Part shown: piece by piece, positions 10,545-63,429 of the stretch
Layout of the letters: every line of letters begins with the position of its first letter
How positions within the stretch are numbered: the first letter of the stretch is position 1
DNA from: Bacillota bacterium
GTDB taxonomy: Bacteria; Bacillota_I; Bacilli_A; RF39; UBA660
Assembly (NCBI GenBank): GCA_015059375.1
Contig: SVAN01000002.1
Span: 27,328 to 91,327, forward strand
DNA: 64,000 nt
Direction of reading: 5' to 3'
Notes under the pieces: generated by a model
What the model was told of the DNA's origin: nothing
The model's input: only the letters and a program-made list of their open reading frames with translations
Database searches by the model: none
Position numbers and translations under genes: made by a program

Positions 10545-10558
10545 AAAAATTGCCATTT

Positions 10559-34041: not shown

Positions 34042-34115
34042 TGGCAGGGGCGGAGAGAATCGAACTCCCATCAAAAGTTTTGGAGACTCCTATGCTACCA
34101 TTATACCACGCCCCT
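34042..34115 (-). tRNA. tRNA-Trp (anticodon CCA)
   Basis: AGGGGCG...anticodon loop CTCCAAA...GGGAGTTCGATTCTCTC...CGCCCCT-G-CCA, folded by hand. Confidence 0.95.
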
Positions 34116-47284: not shown

Positions 47285-47318
47285 AAAAAACATCTATTTT
47301 AAAAAATAGATGTTTTAT
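47285..47318 (-). terminator. terminator following the displaced tRNA-Cys 3' half
   Basis: 12 bp stem aacatctatttt/aaaatagatgtt with a T-run on the minus strand. Confidence 0.55.
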
Positions 47319-47324
47319 TTACTA

Positions 47325-47368
47325 TGGAGGAACCAACCAGATTTGAACTGGTGCTCAGGGTGTTGCAG
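47325..47368 (-). pseudogene. 3' half of a disrupted tRNA-Cys (anticodon loop to CCA), one att junction
   Basis: The minus strand reads CTGCAAC-ACCCT-GAGC-ACCAG-TTCAAAT-CTGGT-TGGTTCC-T-CCA. TGGTTCC pairs with GGAACCA at 63354-63360. Confidence 0.8.
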
Positions 47369-47498
47369 TCCCATACATACCTATTTAGTTATTATATAAA
47401 ATTCATTAAAACCTAGGTAAATAAAGGGTTTAGTAGAAGTTTGTATAAATCGATATTACTATCATTTTATTAAAATTTACTACTAAATTATCATCAAG

Positions 47499-47523
47499 TG
47501 ATACGTTTTTGATACGTTTTTTT
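47499..47523 (+). repeat. tandem GATACGTTTT(T) repeat (putative integrase arm-type site), left arm
   Basis: gtGATACGTTTTTGATACGTTTTTtt. The same tandem recurs at 63053-63076 and 63221-63243. Confidence 0.6.
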
Positions 47524-47571
47524 GAATATGTATTAACAAATAAACTCATTGTGTAACTTCAGTTTATTTGA

Positions 47572-47587
47572 TGATATAATTATATCA
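47572..47587. promoter_or_regulatory. perfect 16 bp palindrome overlapping a TATAAT box (possible operator)
   Basis: TGATATAATTATATCA, 22 nt upstream of the first element ORF. Confidence 0.3.
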
Positions 47588-47609
47588 TTTAAAGATAGGA
47601 AAAAACAAT

Positions 47610-47894
47610 ATGTCTTATGTGGAAAATGATTTAATTCAAACTATAATAGATGATTTAATATTTCTTAATAAGAAGTATGGCAAAAAGATGTTTATAGTTA
47701 AATTGGGTAATCAATGTATAGATATAACATATAACAAAAGAACCTTTAATTTGTATATCTTACATAAAAATAATAATATACTATTACATTTAAAGTACTT
47801 AAATAAATTGATTTATGAAATAGATATAAGTATAGGCATTAGAAGATACTCTATTAAATTAGTAATGAGAGCAATTAAAAAGTATAAGCCATAA
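47610..47894 (+). CDS. hypothetical protein (element)
   Basis: 94 aa ORF with RBS aggaaaa. Confidence 0.45.
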   Translation: MSYVENDLIQTIIDDLIFLNKKYGKKMFIVKLGNQCIDITYNKRTFNLYILHKNNNILLHLKYLNKLIYEIDISIGIRRYSIKLVMRAIKKYKP

Positions 47895-48021
47895 TTAAAT
47901 GTATCTCTTTTAAACTCTAGGAAAAGATTAGTTAAAGTAATATAAATTATTAAATTAATCTGTTTCGTTTATCCATGATATCCCAAATTAATCCAGGATA
48001 ATAAATTTTAACTAATTAAAA

Positions 48022-48046
48022 TAAAAAACGATAAATAGATTATCGC
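48022..48046 (-). terminator. terminator of the XRE repressor gene
   Basis: cgataa-ataga-ttatcg hairpin plus T6 on the minus strand. Confidence 0.5.
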
Positions 48047-48060
48047 TTTAGATTACATTA

Positions 48061-48074
48061 CTTACAAACTTACA
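48061..48074 (-). repeat. TGTAAGTTTGTAAG motif, copy 1
   Basis: Exact 14-mer on the minus strand, 15 nt downstream of the XRE gene stop. Confidence 0.7.
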
Positions 48075-48088
48075 CACTTTTCCATATA

Positions 48089-48379
48089 TTAGTATTTAGT
48101 TTTAGGTTTTCTTGTACCTGTTACTTCATCTAATCTATTAGGTGTATTATAATGTGATTCATCATCTTTTAATAATAGATAAGTATCTATGTTTAGAGCA
48201 AGTGCTAGGTCGTCTAACTTTTCAAGACTAGGACAAAACTGTCCTCTTTCAAGGTCTGATATGTATTTATCAGTTAAATCTGTTTTTATAGCTAGGTCAA
48301 CTTGTGTCATCTTATTTTCAATTCTATAATATCTTAGATTAATTCTAAAAATTTCTCTTATATCTTTTCTTATACTCAC
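48089..48379 (-). CDS. XRE-family HTH transcriptional regulator (cI-like repressor)
   Basis: MTQVDLAIKTDLTDKYISDLERGQFCPSLEKLDDLALALNI HTH. Divergent from the replication genes. Confidence 0.8.
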   Translation of the reverse strand: MSIRKDIREIFRINLRYYRIENKMTQVDLAIKTDLTDKYISDLERGQFCPSLEKLDDLALALNIDTYLLLKDDESHYNTPNRLDEVTGTRKPKTKY

Positions 48380-48620
48380 AGTTTTACCACCACCTTATGT
48401 AGTTTAATTATAAGGATTTCACTTTATGATACACACCTAGTCAAAAAGTGATATTATTTATATCTCTTTTAAATTCTGGTTAATGTTTTTAGTATTTTAA
48501 TGTATTTATATTTCAAAGGTATTTCGTTTAATAGGGATTAAATGGGATATCTTTTTTATATATGTTAAAGTTTATAAAAACTGATTATAATAATCTAATG
48601 AATTTAGAAAGGTTGATTTG

Positions 48621-49028
48621 ATGAATGATATTATATTTGATGATACAAAGAACGAAAACAATAAACTCATTTATGTATATAGTGAAGATAAAGACAAAAG
48701 AAATAAAATCTTAAAAGTTATAAATGATTCTCTACTAAATACAAGATTAGCAGTGATGATAAATACAAAAGAATTTATAGATAATAAGAATATTCTTGAA
48801 GATATAAAGAATAATGATATTGATACTTTTATAGTTGATGATATTGAACTATTAAGTAATGATTATGAATTACAAACTTTATTCTTTAATACATTTAATC
48901 ACTTATATACTTATGATAAAAAATTAATATTACTATCAAGTCTATCTCCGACTAAACTTATTGGATTTAATAAGAGATTAAAAGCAAGATTATCTTGGGG
49001 TAAGGTTTATTGTTTAGATGATATTTAA
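48621..49028 (+). CDS. DnaA AAA+ domain-III-only homolog lacking a Walker A P-loop
   Basis: IDTFIVDDIELL, LQTLFFNTFNHL, KKLILLSSLSP and RLKARLSWG parallel DnaA LLIDDIQF, EEFFHTFN, QI.LTSD..P and RL.SRF.WG. The P-loop position reads YSEDKDKRNK. Confidence 0.65.
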   Translation: MNDIIFDDTKNENNKLIYVYSEDKDKRNKILKVINDSLLNTRLAVMINTKEFIDNKNILEDIKNNDIDTFIVDDIELLSNDYELQTLFFNTFNHLYTYDKKLILLSSLSPTKLIGFNKRLKARLSWGKVYCLDDI

Positions 49029-49097
49029 GAATAAAAATGATGTTAAATATTTTAAAAATTAATTATAATAAGCCCTAATTGAAAGTTTAGTGATAGT

Positions 49098-49796
49098 ATG
49101 ATTCATAGAGTTGTTAAAAATAGTAATTACACAATAGTAAATAATGTATATTTAAGAGATAAAGCTTTAAGTTTTGGGGCTATAGGATTAATGACTAATA
49201 TACTATCTTGTAAAGATGATACTAATTTTAATGTTAAATTCTTAAGTATGTTGACTAGTAAGAGTGAAAAAGTTGTAACTAAATATCTAAATGAATTAAA
49301 ACGAAATGGTTATGTTGATGTAGAAAAATTAAATAGTAAAGATGGATTTTACTATAATTATTATGTTTATGAATCTAAAGAATTAAATCCTAAATATTCT
49401 TATAAAAGCCCAGATACCCAAAACCCAACCTGGGAAAGCCCACCTTTGGGTTTGGTAGATACTAATAAATACTTATATAAACAAGATAAAATAGATAAAT
49501 TACATTTAGACTTAAATAATATAACTATTTATTTAGTAGATAAAGGATTAATTAAGGTTGATGACATTACTCTCTTTGCTTATGATGACTTTATAAAAGA
49601 GTTATTTAATAATGAAGATTATAAAAAAGTAGTCAAAAGTATTTCTTATACTACTAATCATATATTAAAGAATAAGTTTAGAGATGAATCACATCAACCT
49701 ATATTAAATTTATTCTCTTATTTTAAAAGTTCAGTAATTAGTAATATTAATAGACAATACACTAATGAAGAATTAGAAGATTTATATGATATTTAA
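49098..49796 (+). CDS. winged-HTH replication-initiator/DnaD-like DNA-binding protein
   Basis: The N-terminal pattern YTIVNNVYLRDKALSFGAIGLMTNILS...FLSMLTSKSEKVVTKYLNELKRNGYV is typical of plasmid and phage Rep wHTH proteins. Confidence 0.5.
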   Translation: MIHRVVKNSNYTIVNNVYLRDKALSFGAIGLMTNILSCKDDTNFNVKFLSMLTSKSEKVVTKYLNELKRNGYVDVEKLNSKDGFYYNYYVYESKELNPKYSYKSPDTQNPTWESPPLGLVDTNKYLYKQDKIDKLHLDLNNITIYLVDKGLIKVDDITLFAYDDFIKELFNNEDYKKVVKSISYTTNHILKNKFRDESHQPILNLFSYFKSSVISNINRQYTNEELEDLYDI

Positions 49797-49913
49797 TTAC
49801 ATATTACTCAAAATTTTAAATATTATTATTTATAATAATATTTAAGAAAATTTGGCTATGTATTTTTATAAAATCTATAATTATAATATGCCTTCAAGAA
49901 AGGCGGTGTGATT

Positions 49914-50174
49914 ATGAATAACAAAGATATTTTACTACTTAAAGAGATAATTAAAAACAATAGAATATTAGTTGATGAAATGTTTGTGTCTTTTGATGTA
50001 GAAAAAAATAGTATATCTAATTCTTTTAAAAGTATGTTAGAATTAGTTGAGAATATTTTAAAAGAAAAAGACTGTCCATACTGTAAGGAAAATAAAACTG
50101 ATAGTATTGACCCTAATGTGCTATGTCCATCTTGTAGAAGAACTTTTGGGCATAGCTTTTTTAATGAGTTATGA
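49914..50174 (+). CDS. small zinc-ribbon protein
   Basis: CPYC ... CPSC pair. RBS aaggcgg. Confidence 0.45.
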   Translation: MNNKDILLLKEIIKNNRILVDEMFVSFDVEKNSISNSFKSMLELVENILKEKDCPYCKENKTDSIDPNVLCPSCRRTFGHSFFNEL

Positions 50175-50189
50175 AAGGAAAATAAGAAT

Positions 50190-50435
50190 ATGTATAATAA
50201 TTTAGTATATGTTATAGGCAAAATAAAAGAAATAGACAAAGATATAGTAAAAATTAAAGTTAAAAAAGATGATAAAGAATTTAATATAATAACTTGTCAA
50301 TTACTTAATATGTCAACAGAATCACTAGAAGTTGATAAATTAATCGGTATTAGAGGTTTTTTAGAATCTGATGAAAATGATAATATAAAAGTTATTGTAT
50401 TAAAATTAACTCATTTGCCAAGTTTTGAGGAGTAA
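50190..50435 (+). CDS. mini OB-fold (SSB-like) protein
   Basis: NLVYVIGKIKEI...FNIITCQLL...DKLIGIRGFLES follows the SSB OB-fold strand pattern. No acidic tail. Confidence 0.4.
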   Translation: MYNNLVYVIGKIKEIDKDIVKIKVKKDDKEFNIITCQLLNMSTESLEVDKLIGIRGFLESDENDNIKVIVLKLTHLPSFEE

Positions 50436-50442
50436 GATACAA

Positions 50443-51153
50443 ATGAATTATGTAAGAATATATTATAAATTAAGTTTTAAATATAGATTATTATTATGTT
50501 TATTAAATAATTATTATTTAAATCATTATGCAAAGAATAAAATTAATAGTAAAATTGTAGTATCATCTCCTGATGAGTCAAAACTCATGAGAGATTATGA
50601 GATTATATTTAATGTTATTAAGAATTTAAAAATAGATGATTTAATAACATTAAGAAAATTTATACCTAAACATCAAATAGAAATAATTAAAATCTTTGAT
50701 GAATTAAAGAAACAAGATATAGACTATAGTAAGATTATTGATGATATAAAGAAAGAATATGTTGAAGATAATAGTATTTATTATAATGATTATTGTGATG
50801 ATTATGAGTATGACTATGACTTAAAGAAAAATAGTATTACTGAAGATACAAAAATACTATTTTTAGAGAATTCCTATTTAAAAGAAGTATATAATAAGCA
50901 TTTAATTAGAAATGTATTTAGCACAGATAATTATTCTATATGCAGAATGAGGTCTGGTAGCAATAATGAATTTTTAGGAACTCTAACAAGTTATGCTTTA
51001 AAATATAAGAAAATAAATAATATAGTAAGAGACATCACTAGTATTAATTTAGAAGATGATTCTTACTATTGCCTTAATTTATATTTAGAAGCAAATGATG
51101 ATGTTATAAGTTATATACAAGAAGATTTATATAATGCGAGAATTGATGATTAG
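50443..51153 (+). CDS. hypothetical protein (element)
   Basis: Start set at the ATG after RBS gaggag. No motif recognised. Confidence 0.45.
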   Translation: MNYVRIYYKLSFKYRLLLCLLNNYYLNHYAKNKINSKIVVSSPDESKLMRDYEIIFNVIKNLKIDDLITLRKFIPKHQIEIIKIFDELKKQDIDYSKIIDDIKKEYVEDNSIYYNDYCDDYEYDYDLKKNSITEDTKILFLENSYLKEVYNKHLIRNVFSTDNYSICRMRSGSNNEFLGTLTSYALKYKKINNIVRDITSINLEDDSYYCLNLYLEANDDVISYIQEDLYNARIDD

Positions 51154-51169
51154 ACTTGAGGTGTGAAAT

Positions 51170-51568
51170 ATGAATAGATTAACTCCAACATTAAAAATGT
51201 TAGAAAAAATTAAAGAAGATAAAATATTTAAAGCATACGTTAGACAATATAAAGAAAATTCTACTATCAATATTGAGTTGCTTAAAGAATTAATTACTCA
51301 TTACAGAGATTTATTAGAAATATATTACAAAGTTAATATAGTGTATGTAGGGAAAAATAATTTAAAATCATTTAGTAACTTAAGTGATAATATAAAAGAT
51401 ACTAATCATCATTTTAATAGACACTTATATTTAGATGATATACACTATTTTAATGAATTTATATTTAGTGACTACGAACTATATTCTAAAACTAGGAAAA
51501 CAATTATAGATGAATTATTAGTTTCTAAAGAAGAGATAGAATTATTAAAAGAATTTGAAGAATTTTAG
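51170..51568 (+). CDS. hypothetical protein (element)
   Basis: 132 aa with RBS gaggtg. Confidence 0.45.
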   Translation: MNRLTPTLKMLEKIKEDKIFKAYVRQYKENSTINIELLKELITHYRDLLEIYYKVNIVYVGKNNLKSFSNLSDNIKDTNHHFNRHLYLDDIHYFNEFIFSDYELYSKTRKTIIDELLVSKEEIELLKEFEEF

Positions 51569-51645
51569 TAATAAGTAATTAACTTAGTTGTCATTTTGTG
51601 TTATACTCTTTATAAGATAAACTAACTGTTTTACTTCTAGTTAGT

Positions 51646-53004
51646 TTGAGAGGAGTATGTAGTGTGGTTAATTCTAATATTATAAGAAAGATAAATGATT
51701 TTTTTAGCAAAAAAAAGGTTATTAAACATATTATATTGTTATTATTATTTGGAATAATAACAGGATTTCTTTATGTATCTAATGATATATTTATGCTTAG
51801 AGCTAAAATTATAGTTATTGTTATAGTTATATTAATTTATTCTTCTATACTACTATGTAAAAGTTTTTATAAAATAGATGATAAATATAACTGGGATAAG
51901 CCTCCAAAAATATACTTTTATGTTAGTATGTTTCTACCTATTGTAGGTTTTATAATGTGGTGTGTATTAGTAAATCATAAACCTAATTCAGCAAAATTGA
52001 CTATTAAAGGTTGTTTATGCAGTTTATTATTACCTATTTTAACATTTATAATAAGTTTACCTATATATTTTGTTAGCGCAGGTATCTCAAGTACATTAAG
52101 AAATACTATATATTCTGATAGTTATACTGAAACTTATAATATTGAATTAATATATAATCAAGATGCACACATTGTAGAAGCAGATGATTTAGATGTAAAA
52201 ATAACATTTAAGGGATATAAAGATGATTTAGAAAAATTTAAAAAAAGCGAAGATTTTAAGAAATATTTTGAAAGTAATCAACTATCTATAAGTTTGAAAA
52301 CTTGTCAAGAAACTTGTGATTTATCTTCAATAATTGAATACTATGTTAAAAATAGTACAAAAAAATATAATTTAAAGTATAAAATAGATAATAAAATTAT
52401 TGCTAAAATATATGACAAAATATCGACTGTTATAACTGTTTATAGTGAAGAAGATACACATATACAATATGATACATTAGTAGATTTGTATTTATATTCT
52501 AGTGATGATAAGGTATATGCTAAAATAGGTAATAAAATTAAATTAGCTCAAAATTTATCTATAAACGCAAAAGAAAGTAAAGATATAATTATATTCGGAA
52601 CAAAAGAGCAATTAAATAATATTCCACATAATGAATATTTCAAAATCAAAGTAGTTAAAACAGGAACAAAAAATGTTTTCTTAAATTACAAAGAAGTTAA
52701 TGTAACTGAATTTGAAAAAATATATGAAGAATACAAAAATTCATTTGTTAGTAAAGAAGTAAATATCAAAATAAATACTTTAGGTAGTAGTGATTTAAAA
52801 ATCATTGATATAAAAACTTATCCTGAAAAAATAAAAATTACTGGACCAAAAGAAGTAATTGATAATATAGAGATTATAGAAATAGATGTTAATGTCGATG
52901 GATTATCAGAAAATAAAACTTTAAAAGTAACTATACAAAAACCAAATGGAGTACAAGAAATAAGTGAAAAAGTTGCAAATGTAGAAATATATGTAGAAGA
53001 TTAG
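51646..53004 (+). CDS. multi-TM protein with extracellular C-terminal YbbR-like domain
   Basis: 4-5 TM helices. C-terminal PEKIKITGPKEVIDNIEIIEIDVNVDGLSENKTLKVTIQKPNGV...VANVEIYVE fits the YbbR repeat pattern. The start may be the GTG at 51664. Confidence 0.55.
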   Translation: MRGVCSVVNSNIIRKINDFFSKKKVIKHIILLLLFGIITGFLYVSNDIFMLRAKIIVIVIVILIYSSILLCKSFYKIDDKYNWDKPPKIYFYVSMFLPIVGFIMWCVLVNHKPNSAKLTIKGCLCSLLLPILTFIISLPIYFVSAGISSTLRNTIYSDSYTETYNIELIYNQDAHIVEADDLDVKITFKGYKDDLEKFKKSEDFKKYFESNQLSISLKTCQETCDLSSIIEYYVKNSTKKYNLKYKIDNKIIAKIYDKISTVITVYSEEDTHIQYDTLVDLYLYSSDDKVYAKIGNKIKLAQNLSINAKESKDIIIFGTKEQLNNIPHNEYFKIKVVKTGTKNVFLNYKEVNVTEFEKIYEEYKNSFVSKEVNIKINTLGSSDLKIIDIKTYPEKIKITGPKEVIDNIEIIEIDVNVDGLSENKTLKVTIQKPNGVQEISEKVANVEIYVED

Positions 53005-53015
53005 GAGTTTTTTAG

Positions 53016-53531
53016 ATGAAAGATGTATTGTATAATGAGAAAAACGATTTCAATGAAATAACTATAAAAGAAGATTTTATTAAATTAAAAAAAGACAATA
53101 ATGTTAAAATATATTACTTTGATTCTATAGATTTAAAAAATAGTTTTAAAACTCATATAGAAAATGATTTTGTAGAAATTTCACTATTAAGCAATAATAA
53201 AGAAATTCTATTTATGATTAAAAAATCTAATTTTTTAAAATTTAAAGAGGTAATAAATCCTATAAAAAGAGGTTATTTAAATCAAGATTTTTCCTTTGAT
53301 GAAAAAGTAGATAATAACGAAAAAAATTATAACCCTAGTGAAGATGATGATGTTTCTCCAATATATGGCGTTATAGGGTTTTTTATACCTATCATTGGGT
53401 TTATTATATGGTTAGTATTAGTAAATACAAAACCTAAATCTGCAAAAATTGCAGGAATTAGCGCATTAATTGGATTTATAATTAATAGTATAGTTTATTT
53501 CTTTTTGCTTGGCCCTATTATATTTGAGTAA
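53016..53531 (+). CDS. membrane protein sharing a TM motif with the preceding gene
   Basis: PIIGFIIWLVLVNTKPKSAK versus PIVGFIMWCVLVNHKPNSAK in the 452 aa protein. Confidence 0.5.
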   Translation: MKDVLYNEKNDFNEITIKEDFIKLKKDNNVKIYYFDSIDLKNSFKTHIENDFVEISLLSNNKEILFMIKKSNFLKFKEVINPIKRGYLNQDFSFDEKVDNNEKNYNPSEDDDVSPIYGVIGFFIPIIGFIIWLVLVNTKPKSAKIAGISALIGFIINSIVYFFLLGPIIFE

Positions 53532-53544
53532 AGAGGTTTGTTAA

Positions 53545-54063
53545 ATGAGTTTAATTAAATGTCCTGAATGTGCAAAAGAAATAAGTAATAATACAAATGA
53601 GTGTATTTATTGTGGTTATAGATTAAAAAAAGAAGTTAATATTAAAAATAATAGTAAAGTAATAATTCATAGTTATAATGACCCATATTTGTATAGTCCA
53701 GCAATTAAAGTTTATAATAATGGAGAGTTTATAACTGAAATTAATAAAGGTCAAACTATATCATTATCTATTGATAATGACACTATTTTTACTTTTAAGC
53801 ACTCAAATAAAAGTATAGATGTCAAAGTTTTGTGTAATAGAATAACTGAGATACAATTATTTTATACAAGAGGTGTTGCCTTAAGAGCAATTACTAATAT
53901 TCAAGGTAAAGATGCAGAATCTAATGTTATCAATAATAAGACTTTTCAAGAAACTATAAGAAAGCAAAAAGCAATTAATAACATTTGGATAACTATTGCA
54001 ATTATCTTAATTATAATTGGTTTAATATGGGGAATTATTGATGGTATACAAGCAATAGGTTAA
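53545..54063 (+). CDS. zinc-ribbon protein with C-terminal TM anchor
   Basis: N-terminal CPECAKEISNNTNECIYCG and a C-terminal hydrophobic helix. Confidence 0.55.
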   Translation: MSLIKCPECAKEISNNTNECIYCGYRLKKEVNIKNNSKVIIHSYNDPYLYSPAIKVYNNGEFITEINKGQTISLSIDNDTIFTFKHSNKSIDVKVLCNRITEIQLFYTRGVALRAITNIQGKDAESNVINNKTFQETIRKQKAINNIWITIAIILIIIGLIWGIIDGIQAIG

Positions 54064-54086
54064 GACACAACAAAGTGTCTTTTTTG
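54062..54086 (+). terminator. rho-independent terminator
   Basis: aagacac-aacaaa-gtgtctt followed by a T-run. Confidence 0.6.
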
Positions 54087-54238
54087 TTTGAAAAATAATT
54101 TAGCTAGTAATGATATACTATATACTATCTATCATTTTTGCACTCTTTTTATATATTAATAATGAAGATGATGATTGATGAAATATAATGATTTGTTATC
54201 AATTATAATAAATTTTATATTTTCAAAAAGAAAGGAAT

Positions 54239-54679
54239 ATGTACATTATGTTAAATAATAATATTATAGTTATAAGAGGTCATGCTGGAAGTTACAAAAG
54301 TGATTTAGCTCAAATTTTAACTAACTCTATTAATGATAGAAAGTGTTGTTATATTGATTTAGATATTAATAAGAAATTAAAATTAAATGAAAATATAACA
54401 TTATATCAAGATAATATAAAAGATTTCTCTGTTGTCGAAGAAATAATAAATCAGAATGATGTAGTTGTTATAGATTATTTGTCGTTGTTTAATCTATTTA
54501 TTAATGAAAATGCTTTATTACATAAACTTTGTGTATTAGTTAAAAAACGTAAGAAAACTCTTATAACAGTAGAATGTATTAGTTGTAATAGAGATTTGTT
54601 GTCAGATGAAAAATATCAAGTTTTAAAATCGAATGCTGATTTAATTATAACTTTGGATACAAATTTAATCACTATGTAA
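54239..54679 (+). CDS. mini RecA/KaiC-like ATPase-fold protein with degenerate Walker A
   Basis: IIVIRGHAGSYKSDLA (Tyr in place of the P-loop Gly) and the Walker-B-like VVVIDYLSLF. Confidence 0.4.
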   Translation: MYIMLNNNIIVIRGHAGSYKSDLAQILTNSINDRKCCYIDLDINKKLKLNENITLYQDNIKDFSVVEEIINQNDVVVIDYLSLFNLFINENALLHKLCVLVKKRKKTLITVECISCNRDLLSDEKYQVLKSNADLIITLDTNLITM

Positions 54680-55068
54680 TGAGAGGAATGATTTGTGTGG
54701 ACAAAAGTAATGAGATTAATAATCAAAAGTATGTAAATGATAGATTTATTAGAATTAAAGAAGTTTGTAATAGAACTGGATTTTGTATGCAGACTATTAG
54801 AAATGCAATTAAGAAAAAAGAACTTCGAGGTTATTTAATTAACAATAGATGGTATACTACTGAAAGAGATTATGATAAGTATATAGCTAATACTTTCAGT
54901 AAAAGTATGTTTGGATTAGATATTGATAAAATGAAACTTGTTATTGATTATTTTGAAAAAGAAGAAATGAAGAAGATTCAAAAAGAAGAATTGAAGAAAA
55001 TTGAAAAAGCTGAAGAATTAAATAAGACTTTGAATTCTAATATTAAAAATGAAGTTAAAACTAAATAA
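54679..55068 (+). CDS. excisionase/MerR-type HTH DNA-binding protein with K/E-rich tail
   Basis: FIRIKEVCNRTGFCMQTIRNAIKKKELRGYLINNRWY. True start uncertain (ATG 54688 or GTG 54697). Confidence 0.5.
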   Translation: MRGMICVDKSNEINNQKYVNDRFIRIKEVCNRTGFCMQTIRNAIKKKELRGYLINNRWYTTERDYDKYIANTFSKSMFGLDIDKMKLVIDYFEKEEMKKIQKEELKKIEKAEELNKTLNSNIKNEVKTK

Positions 55069-55118
55069 TTAATGAAAATGTTTATGTAGATTTTGCCTAT
55101 GTACGAATAATTTAGTTT

Positions 55119-55228
55119 GTATTAAAATAACCCTACCAACAATTAGTATTAAAATTGTTTAATAAAAGGAATGTTAATAAAAACTGTATTTGATAAAATA
55201 TAATACATTACATTAAACGTATTAAAAT
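55119..55228 (+). repeat. three exact GTATTAAAAT 10-mers upstream of the internal recombinase gene
   Basis: Copies at 55119, 55146 and 55219, plus variants at 55186 and 55235. Confidence 0.35.
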
Positions 55229-55293
55229 ATCTGTGTATTAATTATTAAACTTGTAGTAGAATATTTAAAATAAATTAGAAAGAGGTTTTTATT

Positions 55294-56256
55294 GTGAATA
55301 ATGATATTACTATAATAGATAGTAATACTTTGATTACTATTAACTCAAATCAAGAAATAATTAATAAATGGTTTAAAATGTCTGAATTGACTAATAAAAA
55401 TACCAAACAAACTTATTTGGAAGGACTTTGTAAGTTTGTAAGTTTCATAAAAGAAAAAGGAATTGTTAATCCTACAAGTGAAACTATAATTGATTTTAAA
55501 GAATTTTTAATGAATAGATATTCTAATTCATCATCATACAATTATTTAAGTGGAGTAAAAAGTTTTTATAAATTTTTAGAACTACAAAATATAAGTCAAG
55601 ATATTACAAGAGGAATTAAGTTACCAAAAATTCAAAGAGGAAATAAAAAAGACTCTTTAACTTTAGACCAATTAAAGAGTTTGTTCTCTATTTTGAATCA
55701 AGACACTTTATTAAATGCACGAGATTGCTGTATAATTCAATTAATGATTAGAACTGGTTTAAGAAGTTGTGAAGTTATTGGAGCAAATATTGAAGATATT
55801 CAAAATAAAGAGGGAGAAAAAGTCTTGTATATCAAAGGTAAAGGACATACAGAAAAAGATAATTTTGTAGTGATAGAGCCAGACTTAATGAATATCATAG
55901 ATAATTACTTAAATAAGAGAAAGAAATATATAGATAAAGACCCTTTATTTATAAGTTTAAGTAATAATACTTATGGAGAAAGATTAAAAAGTATTAGTTT
56001 TAGAAAGATAGTCAAAGAAAAATTAAGAGAAGCAAATATTGATAGTAATAGAATTAGCACTCACTCTTTAAGACATACTGCAATTACTCTTGCACTAATA
56101 TCAGGTTCAACTTTAGTAGAAACTAGAGATATGGCGAGACATACAGATATAAATACTACTGCTGATTATTTTACAAATCTACAAAGAGTACAAAATAGTC
56201 CAGAAGCAAAAATAGGTAAATTTATTAAAGAAAATATCACTTCTGATATAAATTAA
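55294..56256 (+). CDS. XerC/XerD-like tyrosine recombinase (internal)
   Basis: RTGLRSCEV (Arg I), HSLRHTAIT (H-x-x-R) and ARHTDINTTADY (catalytic Tyr region). GTG start with RBS agaaagagg. Confidence 0.85.
   Translation: MNNDITIIDSNTLITINSNQEIINKWFKMSELTNKNTKQTYLEGLCKFVSFIKEKGIVNPTSETIIDFKEFLMNRYSNSSSYNYLSGVKSFYKFLELQNISQDITRGIKLPKIQRGNKKDSLTLDQLKSLFSILNQDTLLNARDCCIIQLMIRTGLRSCEVIGANIEDIQNKEGEKVLYIKGKGHTEKDNFVVIEPDLMNIIDNYLNKRKKYIDKDPLFISLSNNTYGERLKSISFRKIVKEKLREANIDSNRISTHSLRHTAITLALISGSTLVETRDMARHTDINTTADYFTNLQRVQNSPEAKIGKFIKENITSDIN
55429..55442 (+). repeat. TGTAAGTTTGTAAG motif, copy 2 (inside recombinase CDS)
   Basis: Exact 14-mer. Confidence 0.7.
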
Positions 56257-56330
56257 AAAGGATTTAGGTATCTATAATTATTATTATAGTTACCAATTTT
56301 TTTTTAAGCAATTTTATATATAAAAACTAT

Positions 56331-56344
56331 TGTAAGTTTGTAAG
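56331..56344 (+). repeat. TGTAAGTTTGTAAG motif, copy 3
   Basis: Exact 14-mer, intergenic. The upstream flank ttatataaaaa is shared with copy 4. Confidence 0.7.
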
Positions 56345-56350
56345 TCAAAT

Positions 56351-57442
56351 TTATAAAATTTTAGAATTTTTACATAATTCTATTAGTAACATTTCATCAT
56401 TTTTAGAAGAATCTTTAAAACATGATTTTATAGCATTAGTATTATTAATCTGTTTGTTAATTTCTTCATTGTTTAATTCTTTAAGTTTACCTACTAAAAT
56501 TTTACAAGAATTATTTAAATTATTTCTAGTGTTGTTTTTGTGAAAGTTTGGGTCCTCATTAAAACAACTACTGCAAAGATTTTTAGTTAGTCTGATTGTT
56601 GGTATTGAACATCTATGACATATATTAAAGATTGTACTATTAAGATAAACACAATTTAAAAAATAATAGACTATTGCTTGAACCAAATTGTTAGTTTCAA
56701 TGTAATTTTCATTAAGGTTATTTATAATTTGACTATTATATTGTTTGTAAGATGAAATATATAAATAATATTCTTGTTTAAAACATTTGATATAATAATT
56801 TAATTCTTCAACATATATTTTAACTTCTTGTAATTCATTAAAACCCATAATATTATTTAAATGAAGTTTATCATTTTTATTTAGTTTAGTATCAATAATT
56901 TTTTTAATTTCTGCTAATACATATATAGTAATTGAAGTAAAAATTAAATCTTTAGCTCTAACAGCTAGAGATATACCGTTATTGTGACTTTCTTCAATAA
57001 GCTCTTTATCTATATTTTCATAGTAAGGTAACCCATTTTTATGACAAAAGTCTATAATTAAATCAAATATAAGTTTATCTTCAATTAATTTATCATAATT
57101 TTTAATTTTAATAACGTGATTAGTATTTGGTTCTATATCATCATATAAATTAAAATCTATGTTATTTTTTTCTTCAAATGTATTAGTACCTTTTAAAGAT
57201 AATAATACTATTTTCATATCTTTTCTCTTTTTAATAAATATTTTACTAAAATAATCTATACCTTCAATTTGAAGGTATAATTTTTTTCCTAAATTACATA
57301 ACTCTTTAAATTTAGTTTCTAAATCTTCAATTTTTGTATTATATGATTCATTTCCAAAGCCCTCAATAATATAATAATTAAATATTTTTTTTAAATTATA
57401 GTTTTCAAAAGTATAAACATTTCTTTTAAGATTTAACCTCAT
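56351..57442 (-). CDS. hypothetical protein, sole long antisense-oriented gene of the element (cargo candidate)
   Basis: 363 aa with a C-terminal CHRC...CSSC pair and its own RBS aaaggagg. Confidence 0.5.
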   Translation of the reverse strand: MRLNLKRNVYTFENYNLKKIFNYYIIEGFGNESYNTKIEDLETKFKELCNLGKKLYLQIEGIDYFSKIFIKKRKDMKIVLLSLKGTNTFEEKNNIDFNLYDDIEPNTNHVIKIKNYDKLIEDKLIFDLIIDFCHKNGLPYYENIDKELIEESHNNGISLAVRAKDLIFTSITIYVLAEIKKIIDTKLNKNDKLHLNNIMGFNELQEVKIYVEELNYYIKCFKQEYYLYISSYKQYNSQIINNLNENYIETNNLVQAIVYYFLNCVYLNSTIFNICHRCSIPTIRLTKNLCSSCFNEDPNFHKNNTRNNLNNSCKILVGKLKELNNEEINKQINNTNAIKSCFKDSSKNDEMLLIELCKNSKIL

Positions 57443-57692
57443 ATAGTCCTCCTTTTAAAAAAATCTATCAATTAATACCACTTTTTTCCGACTTATTTAT
57501 TTGGATTTTATTATATAGTATTCTGTTATTGCTGGCGTTAATTGTGAAAACTTTTCTGAATTTGCATTTCATAATTAACTAATTGATATTATTTTAACTA
57601 AAGGTTAAGAAAATGTCTAGGAAATTCAAATAATATTGAGGAAAATTTTTTAAGAAAGGAAACTACAACTATTCTTCCTCTAATTTATATAG

Positions 57693-58181
57693 TTGTGGTT
57701 AATGGAACATGTTATGCAAATAACAGATTATGATAGAATTAAAGGGAATGAAGAAAGTGAATTTAATGAAAGAGCGAGAAGACGTCTTGAAATAAAGAAA
57801 AAATTCCGCCAAAATGAGCGTTGTAAAGGTACTTATGACCCAAAAGAAGGAGTTTATAATGTAGTTATTGGCCAAATTTCTATTAAAGAAAATAGAAACG
57901 GCAATTCTTATATGCAATTTGTTTGTCACAACCTAGATAAGAAAGAAAAATTATATGCTTCTTATTATTTAACAGATGGCACAGATGAATCTTCAATAAC
58001 TGATTTAAGATGTTTACTTGATGAATTTAACCAAGATGATTTTACTGATTATGAAATAGTTGATGATTATGCTATATTAGAAAGATTACAAATACTAATT
58101 GGTGAAGAAGCTAAATTAGTAGTTGAAGACCAAGATGGTTATATGTCAGCGAAGTTATACAGAGAGATTCCAAATGAATAA
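57693..58181 (+). CDS. DUF669-like putative ssDNA-binding protein, translationally coupled to polB
   Basis: GVYNVVIGQISIKENRNGNSYMQFVCHNLD pattern. Its stop overlaps the polB start. The start codon is uncertain. Confidence 0.4.
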   Translation: MWLMEHVMQITDYDRIKGNEESEFNERARRRLEIKKKFRQNERCKGTYDPKEGVYNVVIGQISIKENRNGNSYMQFVCHNLDKKEKLYASYYLTDGTDESSITDLRCLLDEFNQDDFTDYEIVDDYAILERLQILIGEEAKLVVEDQDGYMSAKLYREIPNE

Positions 58182-59976
58182 TCTTATATATTATGACATA
58201 GAAGTTTTTTGTCAAGATTGGCTATTTATAGCCAATCTTGATGAACACTTTATTGTAATTCATAATGATAAAGATAAATTAGATAATTTTATAAAGAAAC
58301 ATAAAAATTACTGGTATGTTGGTTATAATAATTATCATTATGATGACTTAATATTAACAGATATTCTTAACGGAAATAATCCGTATTATTTAAGCAAAAT
58401 GATTATTAATAAAACTGAAAATATTAATATTGATGTAATTCCAAATTTTAAAAGTTTAGATTTAATGCAAGATATTCAAAAAGAAAATAGTAATACCTTT
58501 ATGAGTCTAAAGAAGATTATGGGAAATTTAGGATTATCTATTGTCGAAAGTTCAGTCTCTTTTGATATTGATAGACCACTTACAACATTTGAACTTGAAG
58601 AAACAATAAAATATTGTTCTAATGATGTATTAGGAGTAAAAGTATTATATAAATATAGATATAAATATTTTGAAACAAAATTTACACTTATAAATGAGTT
58701 TGATTTACCTATTGAAACAATTAGATTAGATGAAAATAAATTAGTGTCATTAATCTTAAAATGTAAATGGTTTAAGGAGCCAAGAGATTATTTATCTTTT
58801 GATTATTGTAAACAAATCGATTTTAATTTAATTCCAAACGAAGTATTAGATTTTTACGCTGATATAGAATATAAGTATTTTAAGGGTATGGATTATAAAA
58901 AAGCTATTATTAGTGTTGGTAAAAAAGGAAAATTAAATACAAAACTTTTAGGAGTTCAAACCAACTATGGTTTAGGAGGTTTACACGCTTGTTCTAAAGC
59001 ACGAATGTTTGTAAATAATATTATGCAAATAGATGTGAGTTCTTATTACCCAACACTTATGGTTAATAATGAATTTTATAGTCGTTCTTTTACAAAACCA
59101 GAATTATACAAAAGTATTTATAACAAAAGAATGAAATTAAAAGAAGTTGATAAGTTACGTTCCGATGCGTATAAATTAATTTTAAATAAACCTATTGGCT
59201 GTATGCGTAGTGAAATGATTATGAAAGATTTTCATAATGCGAATAATATTATAGTTAATGGGCAGTTGATACTTACTCAATTAGTTATGGAACTTAAAGA
59301 TTATATTATCTTATTACAAATAAATACTGATAGTATTACTTTCAAATATAATAAAAGAAACTACGATAAAATATTAAATATTATCTGTGACTTTGAAAAG
59401 AGGTTTAATCTTAAATTTGATAAAGATAAAGTTAAGTTTTTATACCAGAAAAATGTCAATAATTATTTTTTAATTATGGAAGATAATAAAATGAAATTTA
59501 AAGGACAAGACTTTAAAAATTATGATAAACATGACTTTATTTATTTAAATAATAGTCGAAGTATTATAAGTAAATGTCTAGTTGAATATTATAAGAATAA
59601 AACTCCTATAGAAGAAACAGTTAGAAAATGTTATGACAATGATGAAATAGATAGATTCCAATTAATAGTATCCTATGGAAATAAATATGACAAGTGCTTT
59701 TTAGAATATCAAGGTAAACTTATCGAACAACCACAAAAAGTTAATCGTGTATTTGCAGTGAAAAATAATGAATACGGATTAATTTATAAGTGTAAAAAAG
59801 TCGATAAAGAACAAGATAAAAATACCTTTGAACAAAATGGTTGCTTTTATAAGAAAGAGAAAATGCCTAATTCTTTTGAACACAATTATATATTTAATGA
59901 TGATATATCAAAGTTCGATAAAGCGTTATTAGATTTAGATTATTATATCAAAATTTGCAAGAAGGAGTTAAAGTAA
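58174..59976 (+). CDS. compact family-B DNA polymerase with 3'-5' exonuclease domain
   Basis: ExoI YYDIEVF, ExoII NNYHYDD, ExoIII YCSNDV, motif A DVSSYYPT, motif [10 protein letters not shown], motif C NTDS. Start set at MNNLIYY. Confidence 0.8.
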
Positions 59977-59977
59977 A

Positions 59978-61498
59978 ATGAAAGATTATTATAAAATTTT
60001 AGGAGTAAGTAAAAATGCTAGTGTTGATGAAATAAAAAAAGCATATCGAAAACTAGCAAAAAAGTATCATTCTGATAATAAAGAAACTGGCAATGAAAAA
60101 AAGTTTAAAGAAATCCAAGAAGCATATGATACATTAAATAATGAAGAAAAGCGACAAGCATATGATACATTTTGCAAATCCAATACTAATTATGAGAAAA
60201 CTACAAATGATGATTATAAAAAAGATTTAAATGCTATGTTTAAATCATATGCTGAAGATGATAATTTGTATTTTATAACATACCTTGCTGAATATTTAAG
60301 TAAAACATATTGTTTTAAATTATATAATGGTTTATTATATGTTAAGTTTGATAAAAAGTATATTAATAATGAAAAAGAAATAATACAAAGATTAAATCAA
60401 GATATAAAACTTACTAAAAGACATTTTAAGGAATTGATGTATCAATTAGAATTATACGCAGAAAAAATTACAGACCAAGTTAATAAAATTCGATTAAATA
60501 ATGGAATATTAACTTTAAGTGATAAAGGTATATACGAAGTAATTGAAGATGATGGTAGTTTTTGTCCTTATAATCTAGATGTAGACTATAATGCAGATTT
60601 AACAGATGAAAAGGTAAATAATTTTTTAAATGATGTTAGTTGTAATAATACAGATATACTTAATATGTTAACAGAAATGATAGGCAGTATCTTAATTACT
60701 GAACCTAAATCACAATTTATGTTTTTTATTCACGGCGTTAAAGGTAGAAATGGTAAAAGTACATTTACTTCTGCGTTAAGGGAATTTGTTGGAAAAGATT
60801 TATCTTCAAATGTTAGTATCACAGGTTTTAAGGATGAAACTAAATTAAGTTCTTTGCGAGGTAAGATTCTTAATATTTGTGATGACGCTGACTACGAAAA
60901 AATATATCTAGAACGTTCACAAACACTTAAGTCATTAGCGAGTGGTGAGTTAATAAATTGTCGCCCGATTTATAGACATCCAGTTAGTTTTTTTAATACT
61001 GCAACAATTATTTGTACTACAAATACTATGCCTGAATTTGCAGATAAAAGTGGTGGAACTCGTCGTAGATTAATTATAATTGAATTTAATATGGTTGTAG
61101 ATAAAAATAATAATAATCCAAATTTACTTGATGAATTAACAACTAATACTGCTAAAACAACATTTTTAAATATTGCTATTAAAGGTATGAATAGATTATT
61201 GAATAATAACTATTATATTACCGAAAATGAAACTCTTACTAAAACTTTAGAAGAATATTATCGAAGTAGTGATACAGTTAAGGATTTTATTGATAGTGGT
61301 GCAGAAATCGAAAATCAAATAGTTGCCAATGTATATAACGCTTATGAAACATTTTGTGATAAAGTAATTTGTCGTGAAAAAGAAAGCAAAAATGTTTTCG
61401 GTATGCGCATGAAACAATATGGATATATTTCTAAAGTTGACACAAAAACAAGAGATGATAGAAAAAAAGTTTCTCAAAGAATTTATATAAAAAAGTAA
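59978..61498 (+). CDS. J-domain :: D5_N-like :: SF3 (P4/D5-type) helicase fusion protein
   Basis: N-terminal [31 protein letters not shown]...[19 protein letters not shown]. Walker [11 protein letters not shown], Walker B NICDDAD, motif C ICTTN and RRRLIIIEF. Confidence 0.85.
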
Positions 61499-61499
61499 A

Positions 61500-61512
61500 T
61501 GTAAGTTTGTAA
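61500..61512 (+). repeat. TGTAAGTTTGTAA motif, copy 4
   Basis: 13-mer beginning 2 nt after the helicase stop codon. Confidence 0.65.
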
Positions 61513-61583
61513 TACTTATATGTACGATTTAAAAAAAATATTTTATAATATCAAATTAACATAAACTAAGGAGATGATAACTT

Positions 61584-61874
61584 ATGGAAGATATACGAAA
61601 TATGAAAGTTGGAGACTTTTTAGATTTACTGACAACATTGATTAACAATAAACAAGAAAATGATACAGAAAAAAAGTATTTATCTAAAAACGAAGTTTTA
61701 GAGCAATACCCATTATTTACCGAAAGTAGTTTATCTAAAGCTGTTAAATTTCAAGGTTTAGAATATATTAAATCTGGAAGATGTAGATACTATGCAAAAG
61801 ATTCAATAGAAAAATGGCTTGAAAATCAAAAACAAAAAGAAATTTATAATCGATTTGAAGGAATTAAATTTTAG
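61584..61874 (+). CDS. xis: excisionase-family HTH protein
   Basis: Small HTH protein (KYLSKNEVLEQYPLFTESSLSKAVKFQGLEYIKSGR.RYYAKDSIEKWL) immediately upstream of int. Confidence 0.6.
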   Translation: MEDIRNMKVGDFLDLLTTLINNKQENDTEKKYLSKNEVLEQYPLFTESSLSKAVKFQGLEYIKSGRCRYYAKDSIEKWLENQKQKEIYNRFEGIKF

Positions 61875-61894
61875 TTAGAATTGAGGTACTTGTT

Positions 61895-63055
61895 ATGAAT
61901 ACTAAAGATGAAGATATGAAATATATTACAATTTTACCTAATGGTTCAAAAAGAATTAGTGTTAGAATTGGACGAGGTATTGATGGCAAATACCTTTATG
62001 ATACTAAACAATTAGGTAAAGAAGTAGATATAAAAGAAGTAAAAAAACTTCGTGATAAAATGGTAGAAAATAAACAAAATATAAAGAATATAGATGGAAG
62101 TATGTTAGTAGAGACTTTTGCTAAAAAATGGCTAGTTGAAGTTGTTTTAGCACAGTCTCCTAATACTTATGATGATAATTACTCAAAATTAAAACATCAT
62201 ATAATTCCTTATTTTGGTACAAGTAAATTAAAAAATATCACTCAAGATAAAGTTCAAGAATTAGTAAAATATTTAACCACTAAAAAAGCAATGAATAAAA
62301 AAGATTCATTATTAAGCGTCACTACTATAAAACATATAGTAAATGTCTTAAGTTCAATGATGAATTATGCTATAGAATTAAAAATGATTAAAACTAATCC
62401 TTGTCACGATATAAAATACCCAAAAGGAGAAACTTTTGAAAAAGAAGTATATAACGTTGAAGAAATTGGTATTTTAATAAATCATTTAAAACTATTACCA
62501 TCTCAAAATAAAGCTTTGTATATTGTATTATTAACAACTGGATTAAGGCGTGGTGAGTTAATAGGATTACATTGGAAAGACATAGATTTTAAAAATAAAA
62601 CAGTATCTATTAAAAAAGCATATTATAAAACAAAGGTAAGTGGTAAAGTAACAACTAAACCAAAATCTAAATATAGTATTAGAACAGTCGGTTTAAGTGA
62701 TTTAGCTATTGAATGTTTATTAGAATATAAGAAAGAACAAGATATATGGAAGAAAAAATATTCAAGCGAATGGAAATCTCCTAATGTATTTACAGATGTA
62801 TTTGGAAATATTTTAAGTCCTGATGCAGTGTCTAGTAGATGGACAAGACTAGTTAAGAAAATACCTGTTAAAAATATTAGACTACACGATTTAAGAGCAA
62901 GTTATGCAACATATTTAGTTTATAGTGAAACCCCAATAGCAGATATATCTAAAACTATGGGACATTCAAGAATAAGTACAACTGTTGATATGTATGTAAA
63001 AAGTTACGATAAATATTATGAGTCAGCACGAAATAATATTAATAAAATTCGTTGA
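61895..63055 (+). CDS. int: phage-type tyrosine integrase
   Basis: TTGLRRGEL (Arg I), HDLRASYAT (H-x-x-R) and GHSRISTTVDMY (catalytic Tyr), with an N-terminal arm-binding-type extension. Adjacent to the att end. Confidence 0.9.
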   Translation: MNTKDEDMKYITILPNGSKRISVRIGRGIDGKYLYDTKQLGKEVDIKEVKKLRDKMVENKQNIKNIDGSMLVETFAKKWLVEVVLAQSPNTYDDNYSKLKHHIIPYFGTSKLKNITQDKVQELVKYLTTKKAMNKKDSLLSVTTIKHIVNVLSSMMNYAIELKMIKTNPCHDIKYPKGETFEKEVYNVEEIGILINHLKLLPSQNKALYIVLLTTGLRRGELIGLHWKDIDFKNKTVSIKKAYYKTKVSGKVTTKPKSKYSIRTVGLSDLAIECLLEYKKEQDIWKKKYSSEWKSPNVFTDVFGNILSPDAVSSRWTRLVKKIPVKNIRLHDLRASYATYLVYSETPIADISKTMGHSRISTTVDMYVKSYDKYYESARNNINKIR

Positions 63056-63076
63056 TACGTTTTATTGATACGTTTT
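63053..63076 (+). repeat. tandem GATACGTTTT repeat, copy overlapping the int stop codon
   Basis: tGATACGTTTTATTGATACGTTTT. Confidence 0.6.
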
Positions 63077-63093
63077 AGTAAAATTGACATTAA

Positions 63094-63129
63094 AAAAGGA
63101 ACTCTAAATGCTAGAATTCCTTTTATTTT
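63094..63129. terminator. bidirectional terminator between int and the element tRNA-Cys
   Basis: aaaaggaa / ttcctttt stem with T-runs on both strands. Confidence 0.5.
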
Positions 63130-63133
63130 CTTA

Positions 63134-63207
63134 TGGAGGAGCCAGTCGGATTTGAACCGACGATGGAGGTGTTGCAGACCTGTGCCTTACCACTTGGCTA
63201 TGGCTCC
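63134..63207 (-). tRNA. intact tRNA-Cys (anticodon GCA) carried inside the element
   Basis: GGAGCCA-TA-GCCAAGTGGTAAGGC-A-CAGGT-CTGCAAC-ACCTC-CATC-GTCGG-TTCAAAT-CCGAC-TGGCTCC-T-CCA. Confidence 0.95.
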
Positions 63208-63220
63208 ATTTTTTGATAAC

Positions 63221-63243
63221 TGATACGTTTTTGATACGTTTTT
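63221..63243 (+). repeat. tandem GATACGTTTTT repeat, right arm
   Basis: tGATACGTTTTTGATACGTTTTT, preceded by the half-copy GATAAC. About 80 bp inside the att core. Confidence 0.6.
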
Positions 63244-63323
63244 AATAATTTTATTAAATTTTTATTTAATCATTCCTTTAATTACGAGGGTTTGCAACGC
63301 ATTTATACTTAAGAGTACGAGGC

Positions 63324-63360
63324 GTTGCAGACCCACGCCTTACCACTTGGCTATGGTTCC
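63324..63360 (-). pseudogene. 5' half of the disrupted tRNA-Cys (positions 1-37), other att junction
   Basis: The minus strand reads GGAACCA-TA-GCCAAGTGGTAAGGC-G-TGGGT-CTGCAAC, followed by non-tRNA sequence. Confidence 0.8.
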
Positions 63361-63429
63361 ATAATACATTATATGCTTTTTCAAGCAATATAATTGTATT
63401 ATATTTTCTTTAGACTGTCAACTTTTATA

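Follow-up and report, generated by a model that had tools for sequence, protein, structure and literature searches.

A 16-kb replicative island probably integrated into the anticodon loop of a tRNA-Cys gene in an uncultured Firmicute and carries a complete tRNA-Cys of its own

A window of 64,000 nucleotides from an uncultured, low-GC, gut-type Firmicute (Bacillota bacterium, GTDB lineage RF39; UBA660; assembly GCA_015059375.1, contig SVAN01000002.1, positions 27,328 to 91,327, analysed over its whole length) contains two fragments of a tRNA-Cys gene that lie 16 kb apart on the minus strand. The DNA between them is an island with a tyrosine integrase gene (int) at one end and, next to int, a complete tRNA-Cys(GCA) (Table 1). 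The island has a GC content of 21-25% against 27-35% in the flanks, its GC skew is reversed, and both properties break at the borders proposed here. This arrangement is likely to reflect integration of the island into the anticodon loop of the host tRNA-Cys gene, with an island-borne tRNA-Cys serving as the replacement.

The fragment at the int end, read from 63360 to 63324 on the minus strand, has the sequence GGAACCATAGCCAAGTGGTAAGGCGTGGGTCTGCAAC and is followed directly by non-tRNA DNA. The distant fragment, read from 47368 to 47325 on the same strand, has the sequence CTGCAACACCCTGAGCACCAGTTCAAATCTGGTTGGTTCCTCCA. Both are exactly as described in a first-pass annotation of this DNA, which took them for the two complementary halves of a tRNA-Cys split at its anticodon loop. 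Fused at their common CTGCAAC, the halves do fold as that annotation proposed, since ARAGORN calls a 74-nt tRNA-Cys(GCA) in which all stems are paired, with 7/7 Watson-Crick pairs in the acceptor stem and 4/4 in the anticodon stem. Its further claim, that the 5′ acceptor strand pairs perfectly with the distant 3′ strand whereas the intact copy uses different acceptor strands, is likewise borne out: a chimera of the 5′ part of the intact copy and the distant 3′ half contains one G-U pair and one A-C mismatch and receives no proper tRNA-Cys call, and cross-chimeras of the halves with the intact copy are worse than the fused halves. ARAGORN calls no tRNA at either junction alone, and the partial Rfam matches at the two junctions (13 and 23.5 bits) lie under the 29-bit gathering score.

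Covariation connects the halves across the island. In a cloverleaf alignment of six sequences, comprising the fused halves, the gene of a sister species and four tRNAs adjoining int genes, standard pairs occupy 100% of cells and 9 pairs are altered on both sides. At one pair, A7:T66 in the halves and G7:C66 in the relatives, the change on one side is compensated on the other, 16 kb away. Compared with the sister-species tRNA-Cys, the fused halves differ at seven positions, namely the compensatory 7:66 pair, four T-stem positions (still paired) and T-loop position 56. The host promoter sits 33 nt upstream of the 5′ half.

The sister species was found through homologues of NrdD (96% amino-acid identity, 'MAG: Firmicutes bacterium', where MAG stands for metagenome-assembled genome); the host NrdD is also 87% identical to a 'MAG: Tenericutes bacterium' homologue. 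Two sister-species contigs (L070 and L071) carry one uninterrupted tRNA-Cys within about 620 bp between the same flanking genes, which are a homologue of the 539-aa upstream protein and an acyl-CoA ligase. The reconstructed locus is colinear with this site across the junction, at 77% identity over 321 nt and then at 79% into the ligase gene, and the 321-nt alignment runs from the end of the upstream gene through promoter and tRNA to the terminator. More distant relatives retain the order of the 539-aa protein homologue, tRNA-Cys and a homologue of orf190. The evidence thus supports the view that the two fragments once formed a single tRNA-Cys gene, which a site-specific insertion interrupted at its anticodon loop: each pairs with the other and neither with the intact copy, they covary at 7:66, and they occupy the site of a single tRNA gene in the sister species. 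Their derivation from one locus, as the first-pass annotation required, is supported by the same flanking genes.

Metagenome relatives (L017-L055) have the same promoter and tRNA-Cys and differ directly downstream of the tRNA, with 0.1 to 6 kb separating it from the orf190 homologue. The 3′ flank of tRNA-Cys may be variable or insertion-prone in this lineage.

The attachment-site junctions can be placed at the level of single base pairs. The attL core is TGGGTCTGCAAC and the attR core TGGGACTGCAAC; in context, attL reads ...GGCGTGGGT CTGCAAC GCCTCG... and attR reads ...TGTATGGGA CTGCAAC ACCCTG.... Identity between attP and attB consists of the 7-nt anticodon loop CTGCAAC and of TGGG at -5 to -2, which reproduces the shared core of 11/12 (TGGGNCTGCAAC) reported in the first-pass annotation. 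The sequence GGNCTGCAAC occurs in three copies in the window against 0.06 expected by chance; a second GGNCTGCAAC noticed in contig L038 was set aside as a chance match within a coding region. The predicted restored attB junction is GGCGTGGGTCTGCAACACCCTGAGCACC (in context ...AGTGGTAAGGCGTGGGTCTGCAACACCCTGAGCACCAGTTC...), the predicted attP circle junction is GTATGTATGGGACTGCAACGCCTCGTACTC (in context ...AATAGGTATGTATGGGACTGCAACGCCTCGTACTCTTAAG...), and attP as reconstructed measures about 470 bp. Since attP shares only a short core with attB, no tRNA is rebuilt at either junction. The location of the crossover in the anticodon loop, also claimed at first pass, gains independent support from a related element (integrase 43% identical) that is present in two hosts, L067 and L068. 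Their sequences part right after CTGCAACTCCC, and the crossover therefore lies at the loop.

Around this core, the exact 10-mer AAACGTATCA occurs in six copies in the window, all on the minus strand and arranged as three pairs that are found solely at the island ends. The pairs lie 131-157 bp from the core on one side, and 83-109 and 249-277 bp from it on the other. Two of them are contained in 26-mers that are 96% identical (pair P at 47499..47519 and the segment 63218-63243). These pairs are likely to be arm-type sites of a lambda-like tyrosine integrase, as suggested by a heterobivalent layout of the lambda type, in which repeated putative arm sites surround the core and the integrase gene is adjacent. 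The motif also adjoins int in the related contigs L056, L057, L059, L060 and L066, and one variant copy is present in L064/L065. The catalytic residues R218, R334, H357 and Y367 of the integrase are invariant among relatives.

A partial Rfam alignment had raised the possibility that the attP core was once a whole tRNA and has decayed. This was rejected; the similarity of the P side to a tRNA 5′ half, and of the P′ side to a 3′ half, is no better than that of random island windows. A strong inverted repeat extends over attL (63285-63339, minus strand), where GGGTCTGCAACGC is followed 21 nt on by GCGTTGCAAACCC. As RNA it would have a folding energy of -27.2 kcal/mol (z = -5.3), and the spacer of L066 too has a TGCAAC/GTTGCA inverted pair. 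The repeat in the window may provide the integrase with a further core-type site or form a leader structure.

The complete tRNA-Cys lies 117 bp inside attL, between the two P′ arm-site pairs, and has the orientation of the broken host gene. Its acceptor strands are GGAGCCA...TGGCTCC, and its own 5′ and 3′ parts are self-consistent. The first-pass annotation had recorded it as an intact copy between the halves; beyond that, this copy belongs to the island and is presumably its replacement tRNA, an arrangement that has already been described (PMC10865867). The tRNA travels with the element, because L056 and L066, from unrelated host loci, have nearly the same int-adjacent tRNA in both halves, and L057, L059, L060, L064 and L065 share its 3′ end. 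From the core to the island tRNA, the tRNA strand shows no promoter-like site, and the sole strong one on that strand is that of the host, so that read-through from the host promoter is the most economical explanation for expression of the island tRNA. The island tRNA is presumed to be expressed in this manner and would complement the loss of the host gene.

Related elements repeat much of this organization. Integrase relatives are 65-73% identical and known only from metagenomes, with no close relatives in viral_contigs or GTDB genomes. In L066 (integrase 68% identical), which represents a different host locus with a different host 5′ half (GGACCTA...), the order is host promoter, 5′ half ending in CTGCAAC, a spacer of about 115 nt with two arm sites, complete tRNA-Cys, terminator, two arm sites and int, a layout identical to that of the window. 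The more distant L058 (integrase 41% identical) contains int, a promoter, a self-consistent complete tRNA-Cys, arm-like repeats, and AGGA-CTGCAAC with a 3′ half, whose acceptor strand mismatches the complete tRNA-Cys of that contig. Contig L076, considered as an integrase-disrupted variant, was rejected, as the apparent disruption is a scaffold gap of Ns and no mutation.

In the mechanism proposed here, a 15.96-kb non-viral, self-replicating island would encode a lambda-like, arm-site-using tyrosine integrase, and its attP would have recombined with the 7-nt anticodon loop of the host tRNA-Cys(GCA) gene, leaving the 5′ half of that gene at attL and its 3′ half at attR. The island's own tRNA-Cys(GCA), embedded in the P′ arm of attP, would land just downstream of the host tRNA-Cys promoter and take over the supply of tRNA-Cys after integration, and precise excision would restore the host gene. 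The island is probably still able to excise. We hold with good confidence that the island integrated into the tRNA-Cys loop and brought a replacement tRNA with it. A more far-reaching proposal is offered tentatively and may well prove wrong. Among these related non-viral replicative islands, the tRNA-Cys in the attP arm would be promoterless and expressed only once integration puts the captured host promoter ahead of it; if the host, with its reduced genome, has a single tRNA-Cys gene, the substitution of this essential gene would be obligatory and self-stabilising, to be lost only by precise excision.

Several points weigh against the integration with a replacement tRNA described above. The uninterrupted allele that the first-pass annotation suggested seeking in related strains was recovered at the same syntenic site of the sister species and in no same-species contig; neither an attP circle junction nor a same-species attB is present among the contigs sharing exact flanking or island proteins, and all contigs bearing the leftmost island gene (19/19) represent the integrated form. 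The sole hint of a same-species empty allele is the end of contig L006 (JGI 3300018493, Ga0187909_10191031), which terminates exactly at 47368, the last base common to attR and the predicted attB, as an assembly-graph branch between occupied and empty alleles would make it do. The argument for expression from the host promoter consists of geometry and an absent consensus promoter, and any dependence of the host on the island tRNA is putative. Among the relatives, a search over 10 kb did not reveal the left junction of L058, and L056 (integrase 65% identical) has neither the 5′ half nor the spacer, so that the layout is not clade-wide.

Furthermore, a scan of metagenome_contigs and viral_contigs with a degenerate pattern covering all four att types found no attP, a negative that is uninformative, since the window's own attL and attR were equally absent and the collection therefore lacks the source samples (JGI 3300018493, 3300024268, 3300032167 and others). 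The same scan returned 34 exact attB-type matches, all of them intact tRNA-Cys genes of relatives. The sister species occurs in the sample of L006 (L073).

The occupancy data bear on the possibility that integration took place as described and the element has since been locked in as an immobile remnant, with the halves as decaying pieces of a pseudogene. Such a remnant would fit the finding that every contig is integrated and that no attP junction appears, as well as the partly rearranged look of one junction in the relatives L056 and L058. Nevertheless, both halves are undecayed, with the seven differences from the sister-species tRNA-Cys listed above; int, the candidate recombination directionality factor (RDF) and all six arm sites are intact; and L006 stops exactly at the branch point of attR and attB. 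A fixed remnant is unlikely on this evidence, without being far-fetched.

A canonical integration that restores the tRNA gene would make the intact tRNA the attL hybrid, the fragment at 47368..47325 the displaced 3′ end of the host gene, and the fragment at 63360..63324 an unrelated older fossil. The distant 3′ half, however, pairs perfectly with the 63360 fragment and forms the G-U pair and the A-C mismatch with the 5′ part of the intact copy, which is consistent within itself; the int-adjacent tRNA is nearly the same in two relatives from unrelated loci and its 3′ end recurs in five more; an arm-site pair lies upstream of the intact tRNA, in the spacer; and the single tRNA-Cys of the sister species has a promoter matching the one ahead of the 63360 fragment. 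Canonical restoration is therefore very improbable for the window, even though the intact tRNA directly adjoins int, as in classical islands, and L056 has a near-identical layout with host genes directly upstream of the tRNA and no 5′ half. In L056, positions 10480-10800 contain pheT, a promoter, an element-type tRNA-Cys, a terminator, 3 arm sites and int, and this contig represents either canonical rebuilding of the tRNA or deletion of the spacer by recombination between directly repeated 5′ halves. The two 5′ halves in the window, that of the host and that of the intact copy, are 89% identical (repeat D4).

The window is itself a metagenome contig, and breaks within the tRNA occur in the Logan contigs of related elements, as might be expected if tRNA-Cys repeats had misjoined two organisms or loci. 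Against such a chimera, the attR junction is present in more than 10 contigs and the attL junction in 8, from at least 10 different JGI, ENA and Logan samples and from different assemblers, at 99.9-100% identity, and the junction repeat of just 7-12 nt lies under assembler k-mer sizes. The window sequence is also contained within JGI contig Ga0224413_10001786 (129 kb). Because the junctions recur in independent contigs, an assembly chimera is excluded for practical purposes. Finally, a functional split tRNA, whose halves would have separate transcripts that join or pair in trans like those of Nanoarchaeum, is barely conceivable, although the anticodon loop is cut near position 37/38, where archaeal split tRNAs are also divided. 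The duplex between the 5′-half trailer and the 3′-half leader (-16.4 kcal/mol) is equalled by 8.8% of shuffles, the 3′ half has no promoter-like site ahead of it on its own strand, an intact tRNA of the same isotype is supplied in cis, and bacteria are not known to possess the archaeal splicing endonuclease.

The island-borne replacement invites comparison with tRNA-dependent lysogeny (Guerrero-Bustamante & Hatfull, mBio 2024, PMC10865867), in which a tyrosine integrase acts on an attB within a tRNA gene, the common core (about 8-17 bp) is too short for a tRNA to be rebuilt, and viable lysogens need a same-isotype tRNA encoded by the phage. This strategy has several independent origins among actinobacteriophages, with Fionnbharth (K4), Cluster L, Gaia, BrutonGaster/OneUp and Mollymur as examples (PMC10865867). 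The locus described here resembles these phages in its tyrosine integrase, in the putative arm-type sites round the attP core, in an attB at the anticodon loop of a host tRNA, in a short core (here 7-12 bp) and in the lack of a rebuilt tRNA at attL or attR. As in those phages, close relatives may differ in tRNA rebuilding (compare L056 here). The three structural marks of the phenomenon, namely an integrase with a tRNA attB, a short core and an element-borne tRNA of the same isotype, are all present; its association with temperate phages is not, as the Pfam and PHROGs scans found no virion genes.

Unlike the actinobacteriophages, the element is a 16-kb replicative island with no virion or lysis genes detected, its host is an uncultured low-GC Firmicute, and its target is tRNA-Cys(GCA) and not a Lys, Ile2 or Leu tRNA. 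The position of the replacement also differs: here it sits in an attP arm and has no consensus promoter, whereas the tRNA of Fionnbharth is found at another genomic location under a strong promoter of its own. The locus appears to work like tRNA-dependent lysogeny but is better called tRNA-dependent integration of a satellite- or plasmid-like island. Among Firmicutes, Lj965 of Lactobacillus johnsonii is cited as a possible case outside the actinobacteriophages (PMC10865867), and a review states that some prophages carry tRNA genes able to complement a disrupted one (PMC3714127). As far as the citing papers describe it, Lj965 is likewise an element of Firmicutes that reportedly integrates without rebuilding the tRNA and carries a complementing cognate tRNA (PMC10865867, PMC3714127); by the same description, it is unlike the island in being a full prophage with 4 tRNA genes.

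Classical tRNA-gene islands (Islander, PMC4383910) share with this locus an int that adjoins a tRNA, a displaced 3′ fragment at the far end, and a crossover segment formed by the 7-nt anticodon loop and its symmetric stem. The island falls outside the Islander-type definition of a canonical island (PMC4383910), in that the 5′ half precedes non-tRNA DNA and the intact tRNA 117 bp away mismatches the displaced fragment. A classical element brings the 3′ part of the tRNA along, fused to its core, and thereby regenerates the gene, whereas here non-tRNA DNA follows the core and a separate whole gene is provided. Sublocation classes of tRNA-gene integration sites, with anticodon-loop crossover, were reportedly described by Williams in 2002. 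In Nanoarchaeum and Caldiarchaeum, split tRNA genes likewise have their halves separated at the anticodon loop, and it has been proposed that such splits arose by integration of mobile elements. Unlike these, the present locus has no complementary leader and trailer (duplex p about 0.09 against shuffles), no promoter for the 3′ half, and a bacterial host. The host halves here are most likely silent.

The locus indicates that disruption of a tRNA gene with provision of a spare copy is not confined to actinobacteriophages, or to phages, a matter left open by the 2024 paper, and it provides base-pair-exact borders for a 16-kb island in an uncultured Firmicute. Islander-type finders would set the border wrongly at the island's own tRNA and miss the 5′ half. 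Counts of tRNA genes in MAGs can mislead in the same setting, as the sole intact tRNA-Cys at this locus is island-borne. If true, the tentative proposal made above would carry tRNA-dependent lysogeny beyond actinobacteriophages to phage-independent islands of uncultured gut Firmicutes, with promoter capture as an additional feature. From a practical standpoint, the int-attP-tRNA cassette, about 1.7 kb with the island ends joined, is a candidate compact integration tool for low-GC Firmicutes.

Table 1. Features of the split tRNA-Cys locus and of the island, in positions of the 64,000-nt window.
Feature	Positions	Strand	Remarks
Host tRNA-Cys 5′ half (= attL)	63324..63360	-	Acceptor 5′ strand, D-arm, anticodon-stem 5′ strand, loop CTGCAAC
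Host tRNA-Cys 3′ half (= attR)	47325..47368	-	Loop CTGCAAC, anticodon-stem 3′ strand, T-arm, acceptor 3′ strand, CCA
Host tRNA-Cys promoter	63393..63421	-	TTGACA, 17 nt, TACAAT; 11/12 match, best site in region; kept in L070
Host tRNA-Cys terminator hairpin and T-run	47287..47316	-	Tail kept in L070
attL common core TGGGTCTGCAAC	63324..63335	-	Strict identity with attR, CTGCAAC, at 63324-63330
attR core CTGCAAC	47362-47368	-	
Integrated island, whole	47369..63323	.	15,955 bp between cores; 15,962 bp core-to-core
Complete tRNA-Cys(GCA) of island, presumed replacement	63134..63207	-	ARAGORN; Rfam tRNA 64 bits
Intrinsic terminator hairpin and T-run after island tRNA	63094..63124	-	-14 kcal/mol, z = -5.3
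Island spacer (P′ arm), 116 nt	63208..63323	-	Not tRNA-like; inverted core copy GCGTTGCAAACCC; arm-site pair
Arm-type site pair P′1 (2 x AAACGTATCA), putative	63221..63241	-	Copies at 63221/63232
Arm-type site pair P′2 (2 x AAACGTATCA), putative	63053..63075	-	Copies at 63053/63066; overlaps int stop codon
Arm-type site pair P (2 x AAACGTATCA), putative	47499..47519	-	Copies at 47499/47510
Tyrosine integrase, 386 aa	61895..63055	+	PF00589 at 3.4e-24
Helix-turn-helix (HTH) protein, 96 aa, candidate excisionase (RDF)	61584..61874	+	Just upstream of int; position kept in relatives
Replication module: single-stranded DNA-binding (SSB)-like protein, phage-type DNA polymerase, primase/helicase	57693..61498	+	
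P4-type primase/helicase, 506 aa, N-terminal DnaJ (J) domain	59978-61498	+	TIGR01613, DUF5906, VapE-like
HTH_17 excisionase-like protein and second, Xer-like tyrosine recombinase (320 aa)	54679..56256	+	Mid-island
HTH_3 repressor	48089-48379	-	
DnaA-like fragment	within 48089..49796		
Replication initiator	49098-49796	+	

The gene content of the island points to a small replicative integrative element, probably satellite- or plasmid-like and not a complete prophage, because it includes genes for replication, regulation and recombination and none for virions were detected. In the Pfam and PHROGs scans of the island open reading frames, no capsid, portal, tail, large terminase or lysis genes were found, and a weak small-terminase-like match for the 96-aa HTH protein was the sole virion-type match. 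The 617-aa DNA polymerase of the replication module matches PHROG 1252 at 6e-105 and shares about 30% identity with the DNA polymerases of phages that infect Paenibacillus, Listeria and Staphylococcus, with no match in Pfam, NCBIfam or PDB sequences. The idea that it marks a pipolin was dropped, as the PHROG 1252 match and the similarity to phage polymerases indicate an ordinary phage-type replication module. The fusion of a J domain to the primase/helicase is also present in the L056 homologue and missing from that of L057, and a J domain fused to a helicase recalls the large T antigen of polyomaviruses. The pair formed by the HTH_17 protein and the Xer-like recombinase is kept in the L057 element as well, and it may act in multimer resolution of a replicating form or constitute a second integration module. 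Two membrane proteins of the island, one of 452 aa with a YbbR domain and one of 171 aa, share a 66-nt segment at 79% identity (51931-51996 and 53382-53447) that encodes the same transmembrane motif.

Outside the island, in this host of about 30% GC, the window contains an OLE (ornate large extremophilic) RNA (Rfam RF01071, 206.8 bits) at 34239-34732 on the plus strand, which adjoins a tRNA-Trp at 34042-34115 on the minus strand.

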